The position numbers and the translations under genes were made by a program. From IMG/VR virus record IMGVR_UViG_3300025598_002100, positions 1 to 62,926 of that record: 62,926 bases of DNA; one strand, given 5' to 3'. This DNA is from a virus (taxonomy: Duplodnaviria; Caudoviricetes). Shown in pieces: positions 4,927 through 8,577 of this stretch. The notes under the pieces were generated by a model that was given only the letters and a program-made list of their open reading frames with translations, had not been told where the DNA came from and did no database searches. Position 1 is the first letter of the stretch. Every line of letters starts with the position of its first letter.

Positions 4927-7110
4927 ATGAGCCACAATTCTGTTCTGAACATAGATAATTTTGAACAGCTCTTAAATGAAGATAACTTTTCCAATCTATT
5001 ATCTACATTATCTGGTAAAGATAACCTCGAAGATTCTTTACAAAGCTTAGTTAAAAAGAATGAAACTATTGTAACTAAAAAAACAGTTACCGTTGTTGTA
5101 CCTGTAAAAAAAACAGTAGTTGTTACTAAAAAAACAAAATCACTCAAATTAAAAAAAGAAATTGTTGCATTATTAGCAACAGCATTATATGCATCTAGTT
5201 GTGTAGATATTAATGATAATAACTTTAATATACCCATTAATGATCATACTACTACTGAAGAACATTCTACAGATTCAACTACTATAACACCTACTGCACA
5301 TAAGAACGAAACTGTTGTAGAAAAGTTAGCGCATATGTTTTTAATAGGGAAAATTATTAATTCTCTAAAACCTAGTGATATCGATAACACAATGCCTGTC
5401 ATTAATGATCGTAGTGATGAGGATGACGAAGTTAAACAACCTATCGTTACTTTTGATACACGATCTCTAGATGAATTGATGGGCGAAGCTAGATCTTTAT
5501 TACTTGAAAAAAATGGTACATATGATCAAGCAATTGCTGATTTGCGTTCTATTATACTTACTCATCCAAAAGAAGAATCTAGATATGCGCATGAATTATT
5601 AGGATACGCCTACGAGAAATCTAAAAATTTTCCCAAAGCTATGAAAGAATATCAAACTTACTTAGCCTTATATACCGACGATGACGAGGATCGTACTAGA
5701 GTAAGACAGCGTTTAATGTCTTTAGAAATATTAGAACCTTCGGGCTTTGTTATAGGTAAAATTAATAAAACACGCGAGCCGCACCATGGAGATAGTTTTG
5801 ATTTTTCAGGGTCAACATCGGATTACTTATACGCAACTTCAAACTCTACTAGAGGAAGTAATCAGTCAGCAACACAAGTAGATTGGATTACAGGTATACA
5901 AGCCTCTTTAACAGAAGTACATAATCAATATACACTATCATCAAAGTTAAGATTTACTGAGATTAAAGATCTTAGTTCTAGTTCAGGCAATAGAACTAAT
6001 TTAACAACAGCATATGTTGATTTTGCTGATACATTTAAAGGATATAATATTCGTTTAGGCAGACAGTCTAGTATTGCCGGAGCATTAGGAAAATTTGATG
6101 GATTGTCGGGTAGTGTTAAACTTACTGATGATTTAAAATTATCTGCGGCTGCAGGGGTTCCTTATGCTACTGCTGTATCTCAAACTAAAAGAACATTCGA
6201 AGGAGTTGAATTAGAATATAATCTTAATCAAGATTGGACTACAGGAATTTATCTAAACCGTGGAATAGCTGATGGGTTCTTAGAACGTATGGCTATTGGC
6301 AATAATTTAGAATATAAAAATAGAGTAGGTAATATTTTATTAAGAACTGAATATGATACAGTTTATCATAGTCTTAATTTAATTTCTTTGCAAGGAACTT
6401 ATTATACTAAAAATTTCGACATATTTACTGTATTTGAAAGAAGAAAATCACCAATGCCTTATGGAGATGTTGCATTGAATTTAGGAGCATTATCATTAGA
6501 TAAACAAACTTATAATTCAGTCAGCGATCTTATAGGAAAATCCGGTCTAACCACTAATGAAATTTATACTTATATATCTCAATCAACACCTATAGCAACA
6601 TCAGCTATTATAGGTGCTAGAGAAAAGATTTCTCGAAATTGGGAAGCTACAATCGATGCACAAGTTACAAATTTATCAACAATTCCAGGATTTAATTTAA
6701 ACCCAAACTTCGATCCCATTCCTATACAGGTCGGTGATTCAAAAAATTATTCATTAACTGCCCACTTAAAAGGAGATAATATTTTCTTAAAAAATAATAA
6801 CATAGAATTTGTAGTAAATGATTCTACTGGGGGACAAAAATCTTCCTTCTTTACTGTAGCTGATAACTATAAGTTTGGAGATAAGAGTAAGAACAGCATT
6901 TCAACTATTCTTAGATATGACGCAACTGATGCAACTTATGGTAAAATGAGCACTGTATCTGCAGTATTGAGAGGATTCTATGCTTTAAGTGATAAAGGTA
7001 TGCTAGAAGCTCAATATTCACGGTCATTAACTAAAACCAATAACACGCTGTTCCTTAATCCAGACAACACAAATCAAAGTTTTTATATCGGGTATAGATA
7101 TGATTTTTAG
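4927..7110 (+). CDS. TPR-containing outer-membrane beta-barrel protein (putative porin of a porin-cytochrome complex)
   Basis: Hydrophobic stretch with lipobox-like LATALYASSC; TPR-like helices (AHELLGYAYEKSKNFPKAMKEYQTYL); ~430 aa of amphipathic beta-strands; C-terminal beta-signal YIGYRYDF; overlaps the cytochrome gene start. Confidence 0.7.
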   Translation: MSHNSVLNIDNFEQLLNEDNFSNLLSTLSGKDNLEDSLQSLVKKNETIVTKKTVTVVVPVKKTVVVTKKTKSLKLKKEIVALLATALYASSCVDINDNNFNIPINDHTTTEEHSTDSTTITPTAHKNETVVEKLAHMFLIGKIINSLKPSDIDNTMPVINDRSDEDDEVKQPIVTFDTRSLDELMGEARSLLLEKNGTYDQAIADLRSIILTHPKEESRYAHELLGYAYEKSKNFPKAMKEYQTYLALYTDDDEDRTRVRQRLMSLEILEPSGFVIGKINKTREPHHGDSFDFSGSTSDYLYATSNSTRGSNQSATQVDWITGIQASLTEVHNQYTLSSKLRFTEIKDLSSSSGNRTNLTTAYVDFADTFKGYNIRLGRQSSIAGALGKFDGLSGSVKLTDDLKLSAAAGVPYATAVSQTKRTFEGVELEYNLNQDWTTGIYLNRGIADGFLERMAIGNNLEYKNRVGNILLRTEYDTVYHSLNLISLQGTYYTKNFDIFTVFERRKSPMPYGDVALNLGALSLDKQTYNSVSDLIGKSGLTTNEIYTYISQSTPIATSAIIGAREKISRNWEATIDAQVTNLSTIPGFNLNPNFDPIPIQVGDSKNYSLTAHLKGDNIFLKNNNIEFVVNDSTGGQKSSFFTVADNYKFGDKSKNSISTILRYDATDATYGKMSTVSAVLRGFYALSDKGMLEAQYSRSLTKTNNTLFLNPDNTNQSFYIGYRYDF

Positions 7111-7627
7111 AATAATAGCAATACTTTTTTTATTACTTGTTAGCGATCGTGTATATGGTGCAGAATGTACAGCTTATCAAACATTACATCCTCGCTATCC
7201 ATTAACAGGTGCACATTTAAGTACTGGAAAATGCACTACGTGTTCTTTTTGTCATGTACCAGCAGGCAATGCTGTTTGGATAGGAACTCCAAATACCTGC
7301 ATAGGTTGTCACAACGGAAATCCTAGTATCAATGGCATGGTACGTAGTGCTAAACATCTGCCTACTTTATTATTAGATTGTGCTGGGTGTCATAATACTA
7401 CTGCATTTAATAGTTTCGCAGGAATTACACAAACTATGATCCATAATACTGGATATCCTACTGTTAGATGCGACGGGTGTCATAATGGTAACTATACCTC
7501 ATATAATGCGCAAGGTAAAGGAAACGGTCATCCTACTACTGTAACTAAAAATGGAGTAAAAATTCTAGTTACTAGTGTTGACTGTAATTATTGTCATAGT
7601 CCGAACAGTTCTCAGTTCGATGATTAA
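7100..7627 (+). CDS. Exported pentaheme c-type cytochrome
   Basis: Signal peptide; five CxxCH motifs (CSFCH, CIGCH, CAGCH, CDGCH, CNYCH); HPRYPLTGAH motif. Confidence 0.9.
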   Translation: MIFRIIAILFLLLVSDRVYGAECTAYQTLHPRYPLTGAHLSTGKCTTCSFCHVPAGNAVWIGTPNTCIGCHNGNPSINGMVRSAKHLPTLLLDCAGCHNTTAFNSFAGITQTMIHNTGYPTVRCDGCHNGNYTSYNAQGKGNGHPTTVTKNGVKILVTSVDCNYCHSPNSSQFDD

Positions 7628-7675
7628 AGCAGAATTTAGGTAAATAAATGTAAACCTTACAGGAGGGCTGCCATC

Positions 7676-8542
7676 GTGCAAAAAATTAAAACACTCTTTA
7701 TGTCTATTATAATGACAATTGCATTAGGAGTATCTTATATTACTGTACCAACAGTAATTGCCGGATCAATGTTGGCATTTTCGGGCACAGCAGACGCTGC
7801 CGAATGTACATTGTATGAAACACTACATCCTAATTTTCCTTTAACAGGTGCACACTTATCTACCGGTAAATGCAGTACTTGTGCCAGCTGCCATGCAGGA
7901 GGTATCTATTTAGGTACTCCTAAAATTTGTGCAACATGCCACAATGGTAGCCCAATCGGACAAATATCTGCTCAAACTATAGGAAGATCAGCTAATCATA
8001 TTCCGATTGGAACTGCTAGTTGTGATTCTTGCCATAATACTACCAGTTTTACAGCATCGTGGTCTATGAATCACGCAAGTGTAAGTAGTTTAGCATGTAA
8101 CACTTGCCACAATGGGTCATATACAGCATACGGTGCTACGGGACAAGATGCTAATCACGCTCCTGAAACAGCTGATTGTGGTGCTTGCCATACAACTCTT
8201 GATACCCCAACACATACTAATGCTGATTGGACTATGTCTCACGCAACAATTCACGCTGGTGTTACAACCGGCTGTGTAAGCTGCCATAATGGTACATATT
8301 TTGAAACTGCAAGTCCTCCGGCATTTGGTAAGAAGGATTATGCTCCTGGTCATCCAGTAACTAGTGACAATTGCGAAACTTGCCATAGTATTAATAACAC
8401 ATTTAAGTGTGCATCTTTAATTGAAGATAAAATGCTTAAGAAAATGATGTCTACACAATTTGCTTGGATTATGCCAAAAAATAAGACAGCAAAATCGACA
8501 ACATTTGCTATGCTGAATATAAAGTTAAATCTTAAGAGCTAA
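7676..8542 (+). CDS. Exported heptaheme c-type cytochrome
   Basis: GTG start after GGAGG; hydrophobic leader ending ADA; seven CxxCH motifs (CASCH, CATCH, CDSCH, CNTCH, CGACH, CVSCH, CETCH); paralog of the preceding gene. Confidence 0.9.
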   Translation: MQKIKTLFMSIIMTIALGVSYITVPTVIAGSMLAFSGTADAAECTLYETLHPNFPLTGAHLSTGKCSTCASCHAGGIYLGTPKICATCHNGSPIGQISAQTIGRSANHIPIGTASCDSCHNTTSFTASWSMNHASVSSLACNTCHNGSYTAYGATGQDANHAPETADCGACHTTLDTPTHTNADWTMSHATIHAGVTTGCVSCHNGTYFETASPPAFGKKDYAPGHPVTSDNCETCHSINNTFKCASLIEDKMLKKMMSTQFAWIMPKNKTAKSTTFAMLNIKLNLKS

Positions 8543-8551
8543 AAGCCAAAA

Positions 8552-8577
8552 TAAAACGCCCCGAAAGGGGCGTTTTA
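8552..8577. terminator. Bidirectional intrinsic terminator
   Basis: TAAAACGCCCC-GAAA-GGGGCGTTTTA between convergent genes. Confidence 0.85.

Follow-up and report, generated by a model that had tools for sequence, protein, structure and literature searches.

Phage genes for a predicted outer-membrane barrel and two multiheme cytochromes: a probable miniature relative of bacterial PCC3 electron conduits

The stretch of DNA analysed here, called the window throughout, is a linear IMG/VR virus record of 62,926 nucleotides (nt) (IMGVR_UViG_3300025598_002100) with an estimated completeness of 17%. A table-11 open reading frame (ORF) listing places a cassette of three plus-strand genes in it. Their products are a large protein with tetratricopeptide repeat (TPR)-like helices and a predicted β-barrel, homologous to the porins of bacterial porin–cytochrome clusters of the type named PCC3, and two c-type cytochromes with five and seven hemes. 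An earlier sequence-only reading of the window had proposed that the phage uses this cassette to install or remodel an electron conduit in the outer membrane of its host. The cassette and its parts are:

4927–7110, plus strand: PCC3-type porin homologue of 727 amino acids (aa), with TPR-like helices and a predicted 22-strand barrel (ORF, AlphaFold2 model, homology)
5143–5199, plus strand: hydrophobic helix, residues 73–91 of the barrel protein, with a Lys-rich stretch before it and SSC after it (AlphaFold2 helix)
5458–5736, plus strand: TPR-like helical domain, residues 178–270 of the barrel protein (five AlphaFold2 helices, 181–269)
5791–7107, plus strand: predicted 22-strand β-barrel, residues 289–727, with a conserved helical insert at 512–552 (AlphaFold2, VIA, alignment)
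7100–7627, plus strand: exported 5-heme c-type cytochrome, 175 aa, with a signal peptide followed by AEC (five CxxCH motifs, Pfam)
7676–8542, plus strand: exported 7-heme c-type cytochrome, 288 aa (seven CxxCH motifs, Pfam)
8550–8579, no strand: GC-rich hairpin of 13 pairs, between the convergent 7-heme gene and minus-strand gene 8620–8895

The barrel gene and the 5-heme gene share 11 nt (7100–7110), and the 7-heme gene starts with GTG, with AGGAGGG lying 9 nt 5′ of the start. The hairpin is, from its sequence and setting, probably a two-way terminator. The GC content of the cassette, 0.32–0.37, matches that of the remainder of the window. In these respects the sequence-only reading, which had noted a large-protein gene overlapping the 5-heme gene, a terminator after the 7-heme gene and an AT-rich character like that of the phage surroundings, described the locus correctly.

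AlphaFold2, supplied with 40 homologues, modelled the 727-aa protein with a mean predicted local distance difference test (pLDDT) score of 72.8. Residues 1–174, including one helix at 73–91, have low confidence; the 22 strands, spread over residues 289–726, mostly exceed a pLDDT of 90. The top structural matches returned by VIA are the 22-strand barrels of TonB-dependent transporters (Cir, Z 16.5, root-mean-square deviation (rmsd) 5.0 over 373 aligned residues; BtuB, Z 16.4), and the helical part is matched by TPR proteins (Z 12–13, rmsd ~2 Å). Foldseek searches of the PDB with the barrel model gave generic porin, usher and AlgE matches only, with TM-scores of 0.2–0.35. MtrB was in neither of these fold-search lists, a result that does not exclude similarity. 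At the sequence level, Pfam TPR matches at residues 191–263 are weak and lie under the curated cut-offs, no Pfam barrel family matches the protein at E values up to 0.1, and an alignment of relatives shows invariant residues in the TPR domain (E223, E230, Y242, Y249, R258, V259 and R262). The last residues of the protein are FYIGYRYDF. Counted from the end, positions 1, 3, 5, 7 and 9 are hydrophobic, and by sequence this YRYDF terminus is a textbook C-terminal β-signal. The picture of a TPR-plus-barrel protein with a BAM-type end, given by the sequence-only reading, agrees with the 22 predicted strands and five helices, and the lack of a barrel fold, which that reading had named as telling against it, is not what the model and its closest structural matches, Cir and BtuB, indicate. 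We also considered whether the protein is itself a TonB-dependent transporter. The barrel is of the right size, at 22 strands, but there is no plug (the Plug and TonB_dep_Rec Pfam domains are unmatched) and the part before the barrel is TPR instead; we therefore rejected this identity.

The N-terminal end of the barrel protein is variable among its relatives. A 72-residue extension is kept within the window’s subclade, with the only hydrophobic helix coming after it; in other relatives this end is either a zinc ribbon of the MJ0042 type (PF13717/PF13719) or just a signal peptide. No alternative in-frame ATG, GTG or TTG adjoins the hydrophobic segment. In the model, the helix at 73–91 may serve as a signal anchor, or else as a signal resembling that of lipoproteins, placed behind the extension. 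The N-terminal region would then be a signal of unusual length or an anchor in the inner membrane.

The two cytochromes are paralogues, with 50% identity across 135 residues (31–165 of the 7-heme protein). Both score above the Pfam cut-off of 24.8 bits for Cytochrome_C7 (PF14522), at 28.1 bits for the 5-heme and 44.1 bits for the 7-heme protein, and NCBIfam gave only sub-threshold multiheme domain matches. After the signal peptide both begin with AEC..Y..LHP...L.GAHLSTGKC..C..CH, and both have about 31–32 residues per heme. These motif counts and the paralogy bear out the pair of related exported cytochromes, with five and seven hemes, that had been read from the sequence. The heme motifs of the smaller protein are CSFCH, CIGCH, CAGCH, CDGCH and CNYCH. 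Its fifth site, CxxCH in the window, is CX4CH or CX5CH in relatives: in the homologues from contigs L015, L022, L023, L025 and L026 it reads CNYSGCH or CNYPGGCH, which is why a plain CxxCH count gives four for these proteins. None of the seven CxxCH motifs varies in an alignment of 41 sequences of the 7-heme protein; His 51, 60, 108, 133, 193 and 226 do not vary either, and H161 is conserved in at least 90%. Further cysteines are also retained. Two are kept in both cytochromes, in the initial AEC and in the GKC immediately before the first heme motif; in the 41 sequences of the 7-heme family Cys 44, 66 and 245 are invariant, Cys245 lying in FKCAS ahead of a variable amphipathic tail. From the sequence, these residues might form a disulfide or make an unusual link to heme.

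Several lines of evidence place the cassette in a phage genome. Contigs from four metagenome runs other than the source run align to window positions 1–14000. One of them, a 16,667-nt contig from a different study (run X10, record 1), spans positions 1–13916 with 14 differing letters and zero gaps, and shorter contigs from runs X7 and X8 bridge every gene junction. Because the independent contig covers both cassette junctions, chimeric assembly is excluded, and the continuity with flanking phage genes that the sequence-only reading had wanted confirmed is established. At least 80% of the cassette’s sampled words occur in 20 freshwater metagenome runs, 14 of them non-source; these 14 belong to 13 coded studies, possibly in part one campaign. 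No RNA run is listed among those that contain the words. Coding differences in the contigs from other runs are mostly synonymous (12 of 14). Two patches of dense differences between these contigs and the window stand out: about 20 changes within 100 nt at 8727–8827, in the minus-strand gene 8620–8895, and 8 changes within 97 nt at 7330–7426 of the 5-heme gene, 7 of the 8 being synonymous. They look like inter-strain recombination tracts.

Besides a ribonucleotide reductase and an exonuclease, the window encodes a baseplate-lysozyme-like protein and a virion protein family. Next to the cassette lie the genes of a giant glycosyltransferase, of a lysin-like protein and of a virion-protein homologue (phrog_11854). 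The nearest deposited phages are Methylophilales phage Melnitz and Pelagibacter phage HTVC008M, to whose proteins one window protein is 38–39% identical. No counterpart of the cassette itself was found among deposited phages: neither the region 4000–9500 (blastn) nor the 7-heme protein (tblastn) found a match in 50,697 deposited phage records, and PHROGs holds no family for any of the three cassette proteins. Among five cassette-bearing records examined, four (327, 328, 179 and 266 kb; CheckV completeness 36–95%) encode a T4-type major capsid protein (gp23, PF07068); the fifth, without a capsid match, is a 70-kb fragment.

Scans of viral and metagenome contigs recovered 19 further distinct contigs with a related barrel gene. 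The order of the barrel gene followed by one or more cytochrome genes holds in all 18 contigs with sufficient downstream sequence, the window included; L021 and L030 were left out of this count as their sequence stops too early. A 5-heme-type gene is present in 13 of the 18, one of which (L024) ends before any 7-heme gene could show, and in the other five (L016, L017, L019, L029 and L031) the 7-heme gene alone follows the barrel gene. The 7-heme cytochrome is the core partner, common to every phage version of the cassette. Synteny with the window extends over positions 183–18756 in L003–L005 and L007, and the cassette of L006 lies in a different neighbourhood, adjoining homologues of window positions 48255–52537. 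Purifying selection acts on each of the three genes. Synonymous sites are saturated in most pairs, and in the least saturated ones the ratio of non-synonymous to synonymous change (dN/dS, Nei–Gojobori) is 0.14–0.22 for the barrel (0.17–0.22 against its nearest relatives), 0.09–0.21 for the 5-heme and 0.05–0.15 for the 7-heme gene.

Close relatives of the barrel protein (at least 39% identity) were found in metagenome and virus contigs only, many of them 70–330 kb long. A pattern scan of one genome per species, covering 185,579 species, yielded a single phage-type barrel, on a 2.2-kb contig (L008) of an ‘Actinomycetes’ metagenome-assembled genome (MAG), together with two near-identical copies of a distant barrel. 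The L008 contig is probably phage DNA in the bin. In a quick maximum-likelihood tree, midpoint-rooted and containing several rows of deviant composition and one long branch (L041), the 26 phage-type barrels form one clade, separated from 13 bacterial ones by a branch of 2.57 changes per column (Shimodaira–Hasegawa-like approximate likelihood ratio test (SH-aLRT) 100).

The distant barrel family connects the phage cassette to bacteria. Its members are about 810–840 aa long, consist of SPOR, TPR and barrel parts and are 18–21% identical to the phage proteins across the alignment. In an even sample of 401 genomes from the phylum of one genome with such a homologue, a profile search found full-length distant homologues in five (214–332 bits), and 13–20 kb were taken around each match. 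In four of these five loci the barrel homologue closes a multiheme cluster, the fifth locus being cut by a contig end. BLASTP aligns the window barrel with the barrels closing clusters L038, L039, L040 and L042 at 24–29% identity (E from 1e-15 to 3e-33). Clusters in four of the five loci also encode a membrane protein of 291–383 aa with 4–5 hydrophobic helices and exactly two WX3HX13H motifs, one cytochrome with 18–24 CxxCH motifs and another with 27–46.

This arrangement can be compared with the published descriptions of PCC3. He et al. (2017; PMC5566968), in the passages that define the cluster, report a porin with extracellular and periplasmic cytochromes of median 34 and 21 hemes, respectively, in Alpha-, Beta- and Gammaproteobacteria, and a protein of the inner membrane, about 300 aa long, that has five transmembrane helices and two WX3HX13H motifs; a low number of residues for each heme is, in their view, a typical trait of heme wires. 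The part of a Gallionellaceae survey that concerns PCC3 gives 21–27 and 10–35 hemes (PMC9900912). By gene content and motifs, the bacterial loci have the PCC3 architecture that He et al. describe; our test of porin homology is a proxy in that the loci were assigned by this architecture and not through the published references Slit_0867–0870 and Slit_1446–1449. The phage cytochromes, too, are related to these clusters, with 27–35% identity to the repeated modules of the giant bacterial cytochromes. Two near-identical PCC3 loci, L009 and L010, are filed under ‘Alphaproteobacteria’ and ‘Methanobacteriaceae’ MAGs, and the barrel genes of both seem to be frameshifted near the 3′ end; since the locus in the ‘Methanobacteriaceae’ MAG is nearly identical to the alphaproteobacterial one, its assignment is probably a binning error.

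Two further parts of such a chain occur in the phages. A short homologue of the PCC3 inner-membrane protein, 149–159 aa long, is encoded in four of five related phage records. It is 36–45% identical to the bacterial protein and keeps both WX3HX13H motifs; both of its ends align to the bacterial protein and the central loop is missing. Its gene lies directly 5′ of the barrel gene in L006, directly 3′ of the 7-heme gene in L016/L017/L027 and about 70 kb from the cassette in the 328-kb relative. In a sister contig it is found about 1.9 kb past the homologue of the window’s last complete gene, just beyond the point at which the window ends. The second part is in the window itself:

25682–26983, plus strand: membrane-anchored flavoprotein with a 4Fe–4S dicluster and FAD/NAD(P) domains (transmembrane helix, Fer4_10, Pyr_redox_3)

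The N-terminal transmembrane helix of this protein is followed by KKRKKHKK. Homologues with 49–56% identity lie beside the PCC3 cluster in four of the five bacterial loci, and the flavoprotein is present in two of the five related phage records. From its domains and its neighbours in bacteria, it is a probable cytoplasmic feeder of the conduit.

The phage cassette is thus close to PCC3 in kind. The TPR-plus-barrel protein, the type of cytochrome repeat and, in sister phages, the inner-membrane protein are homologous, the genes are adjacent, with an outer-membrane barrel gene directly beside multiheme cytochrome genes as in the bacterial clusters, and the number of residues per heme is similarly low, at about 31–32. 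There are differences as well. The phage set has no obviously extracellular cytochrome and is carried by T4-like phages. Its inner-membrane protein is halved (149–159 compared with about 300 aa) by loss of the central loop, and its barrel protein lacks the N-terminal β-rich and SPOR part, in place of which it has a helix-bearing extension or, in some relatives, a zinc ribbon. The parts lie dispersed across about 65 kb in the lineage of the window. Because the very high heme counts of PCC3 are not reached, we class the cassette as a reduced PCC3 derivative and not as a strict member.

The better-known MtrCAB, MtoAB and PioAB systems resemble the cassette in the proposed heme wire inside an outer-membrane barrel and in the adjacency of barrel and cytochrome genes. 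They differ in having 10 hemes, compared with 5 and 7 in the phage cytochromes, and the MtrB barrel has 26 strands, compared with 22 predicted for the phage barrel. The MtrB_PioB family gave no Pfam match at E up to 0.1. Among PDB sequences, phmmer and hmmsearch found neither MtrA nor MtrB, the barrel profile hit TPR proteins only, and the 7-heme protein matched a single reaction-centre cytochrome at chance level (E 0.037). With no relation in Pfam or PDB sequences and with heme counts of 5 and 7, membership of the MtrAB/MtoAB/PioAB family was rejected. The outer-membrane conduit of the sequence-only reading, which had named these systems as its precedents, needs a different parentage: the only non-phage relatives of the barrel that we found sit inside bacterial PCC3 clusters. 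This, together with the predicted barrel fold and the heme motifs kept under purifying selection in the cytochromes, supports the idea of a conduit.

On this evidence we consider it probable that the three genes specify the outer end of a miniature, phage-evolved electron conduit of the PCC3 type. In the mechanism we propose, the cytochromes would be exported by Sec and receive their hemes from the cytochrome c maturation system of the host. The host would have to supply heme attachment because no maturation gene was found: Cytochrom_C_asm (PF01578) matched neither in the window nor in any of the five related phage records, as had been supposed when no ccm genes were seen in the window. The 7-heme cytochrome would sit in or at the 22-strand barrel and conduct electrons across the outer membrane, and its 5-heme paralogue would act as a soluble periplasmic shuttle or as an extension. 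The short di-heme-b-type inner-membrane protein would join this chain to the cytoplasmic membrane, where, at the cytoplasmic face, the Fe–S flavoprotein could pass electrons from NAD(P)H to it. Electrons would most likely leave the cell, passing from NAD(P)H to something outside it, for example Fe(III), humic matter or, at the surface, oxygen. We prefer this direction since nothing visible in the flavoprotein would let it push electrons uphill; of all the steps in the argument, this is the weakest.

A number of observations weigh against such a conduit. There are 5 and 7 hemes in the phage cytochromes, compared with about 21 and 10–63 in PCC3, and twelve hemes are too few for a fixed wire across the periplasm. 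As twelve hemes cannot form a rigid wire spanning this space, a diffusing shuttle is the simplest reading; an analogy, and one by function only, is the Shewanella relay from CymA through STC or FccA to MtrA, in which a small soluble multiheme protein shuttles between an inner-membrane protein and a barrel-bound cytochrome, and which would explain how 12 hemes could suffice. Neither cytochrome has a lipobox or another sign of surface exposure. The AlphaFold2 model of the 7-heme protein, made with no hemes, is poor (mean pLDDT 62.2), and in the barrel model the conserved helical insert at 512–552 could plug the lumen. The proposed mechanism gives no account of the long N-terminal extension with its one hydrophobic helix. 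Chance-level tblastn matches only were obtained for the inner-membrane protein in the window, the protein is absent from a 95%-complete phage record (G003), and the flavoprotein is absent from three of the five related records. No promoter was identified for the cassette, a sigma-70-like scan of the window being at chance level (23 matches, 26.3 expected). To our knowledge PCC3 is itself a genomic prediction that has never been biochemically tested. In Sideroxydans lithotrophicus ES-1, both PCC3 clusters are reported to be down-regulated on Fe(II) (PMC8788666). A complex prediction for barrel residues 176–727 with residues 40–270 of the 7-heme protein, both given as alignments, returned a score of 0.01 and a mark of 0.32 and is neutral on binding.

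The low heme counts and the missing lipobox would also suit a redox module that passes no electrons through the membrane, such as a periplasmic sink, a detoxifier of peroxide or nitrogen oxides, or a store of heme or iron, in which the barrel would act as an anchor or let a substrate through. The window’s genes for heme oxygenase and bilin reductase fit a theme of heme and iron handling, and the place of the cytochrome inside the barrel is a proposed one. We nevertheless regard this account as rather unlikely, for it leaves unexplained both the strict coupling of barrel and cytochrome genes in 18 of 18 contigs and the fact that the barrel, the cytochromes and the inner-membrane protein all have homologues in a single trans-envelope cluster of bacteria. 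Moreover, the hemes appear to be bis-His ligated throughout (seven His for seven hemes in one protein, five for five in the other), and bis-His ligation is typical of electron carriers rather than of catalytic sites. The combination of TPR and barrel is, on the other hand, also that of polysaccharide export porins of the BcsC/PgaA/PelB type, and such a porin could serve the giant glycosyltransferase upstream, with the cytochromes as unrelated neighbours: gene 183–3629 has GT1 and GT2 domains, the same orientation and short gaps, and AlgE is among the generic barrel matches of Foldseek. Yet those exporters have 16–18 strands and many TPR repeats, compared with 22 strands and only five TPR-like helices in the model. 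The glycosyltransferase adjoins the cassette only in the window’s subclade (L003–L005, L007 and L021); L006, L015, L016/L017, L019 and L022–L031 have no such neighbour and always have the cytochrome, and the bacterial homologues of the barrel lie in cytochrome clusters, not in synthase operons. Polysaccharide export is, on these grounds, very improbable.

A device for envelope remodelling, lysis or superinfection exclusion, tied to the neighbouring lysin-like protein, has similarly little chance of being the right explanation. In L003–L005, L007, L019, L021, L026, L029/L030 and L031, no more than a few kb separate the cassette from a gene for a homologue of the lysin-like protein of 3649–4911, and the distant bacterial barrel homologues carry a peptidoglycan-binding SPOR domain; but the cassettes of L006, L015, L016/L017, L022 and L028 have no lysin-like gene nearby, and a lytic device would offer no role to twelve conserved hemes, a di-heme-b-type membrane protein and a flavoprotein. 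The window, being no more than a linear fragment of 17% completeness, could, finally, raise the suspicion of host genes captured recently and serving no phage function, or of an artefact of assembly or binning. With the independent contig over both junctions, the phage-like GC content of the cassette, the single clade of phage-type barrels on its long branch in the quick tree (SH-aLRT 100), the purifying selection among phages and just one phage-type copy in 185,579 species genomes, on a 2.2-kb MAG contig, we find this scarcely credible.

If the three genes are the outer end of a PCC3-type conduit, infection would alter the electron exchange of plankton with iron, humic matter and other cells in lakes, and the phage recurs in many freshwater metagenomes. 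The phage version would be the smallest natural set of the PCC3 type, with about 450 barrel residues and 12 hemes. Being so small, it makes a system that has gone untested in bacteria much easier to express, purify and solve, and it would offer a compact part for engineered electron export. The window contributes the proof of continuity and a flavoprotein partner that shares its genome with the cassette; it also adds the N-terminal extension of the barrel protein and, through the sister contig, a position for the inner-membrane gene just past the end of the record. A bolder proposal, which we hold to be possible without expecting it to be true, is that T4-like jumbo phages carry a complete, self-sufficient chain of flavoprotein, halved di-heme-b protein, 5-heme shuttle and 7-heme wire in the barrel, and so turn infected freshwater plankton, whose cells may lack this capacity by themselves, into short-lived reducers of external Fe(III) or humic matter. 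Its purpose could then be the regeneration of NAD(P)+ under scarce oxygen or, alternatively, the supply of iron for the phage’s own di-iron ribonucleotide reductase, and the N-terminal helix of the barrel protein would be an anchor in the inner membrane, tying both membranes together.

Known phage auxiliary genes serve photosynthesis and nucleotide, sulfur, nitrogen and iron–sulfur metabolism. The sequence-only reading was aware of no porin–cytochrome module described as a phage auxiliary system, and full-text searches of a literature collection likewise found no description of one. The nearest case is a NapC/NirT-family cytochrome in freshwater amoC-phages of 155–338 kb, as presented in the preprint’s account of these genomes (bioRxiv 10.64898/2026.06.18.733297); cytochromes are also reported, in the relevant part of another study, on jumbo extrachromosomal elements of Methanoperedens (PMC13444090). 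Both are cases of large viruses or elements with auxiliary c-type multiheme cytochromes, and the amoC-phages are freshwater phages too. They differ from the cassette in that, as far as these accounts go, the cytochromes are single, of the host-like inner-membrane quinol-dehydrogenase type or archaeal, with no set of barrel plus cytochromes. AmoC (PF04896) had no match in the five related phage records, a weak negative, the search having matched nowhere.

Two candidate late promoter motifs were rejected as unenriched in the window: TATAAATA has 9 matches where 17 are expected, and GTAAATA has 19 where 25 are expected. GTAAATA does occur on the plus strand at 7640–7646, 16388–16394, 22514–22520 and 43306–43312, in each case 24–38 nt 5′ of a plus-strand gene start; the four genes are the 7-heme gene (36 nt before the start), nrdA, the gene at 22538 and csgF.

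Among other genes of the window, the giant glycosyltransferase (3–3629, plus strand) has two GT1/GT4-type and two GT2-type regions, is open at the 5′ end of the window and is 80–89% identical in L003 and L007. Between it and the cassette, the product of plus-strand gene 3649–4911 is 420 aa long and comprises an HExxH motif (HELVH), a hydrophobic stretch rich in Gly and Ala, a poly-Gln linker and, at its C-terminus, a domain of GH19/endolysin-like type (phrog_181 endolysin). This protein might open the peptidoglycan for an envelope-spanning assembly, or might simply be a lysin. ARAGORN found no tRNA gene in the window.

Further along the plus strand, genes for ClpS, a heme oxygenase and a ferredoxin-dependent bilin reductase stand in a row at 41770–43260, so that genes for heme breakdown occur in a phage that also encodes heme proteins. 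They are followed at 43333–44644 by homologues of CsgF and CsgG, proteins of curli secretion, which score above the Pfam cut-offs and, judged by this homology, would give the phage its second device for secretion at the outer membrane. The CsgF and CsgG genes lie 5′ of a cyclase-like gene (48255–50282) that is common to Melnitz and HTVC008M.

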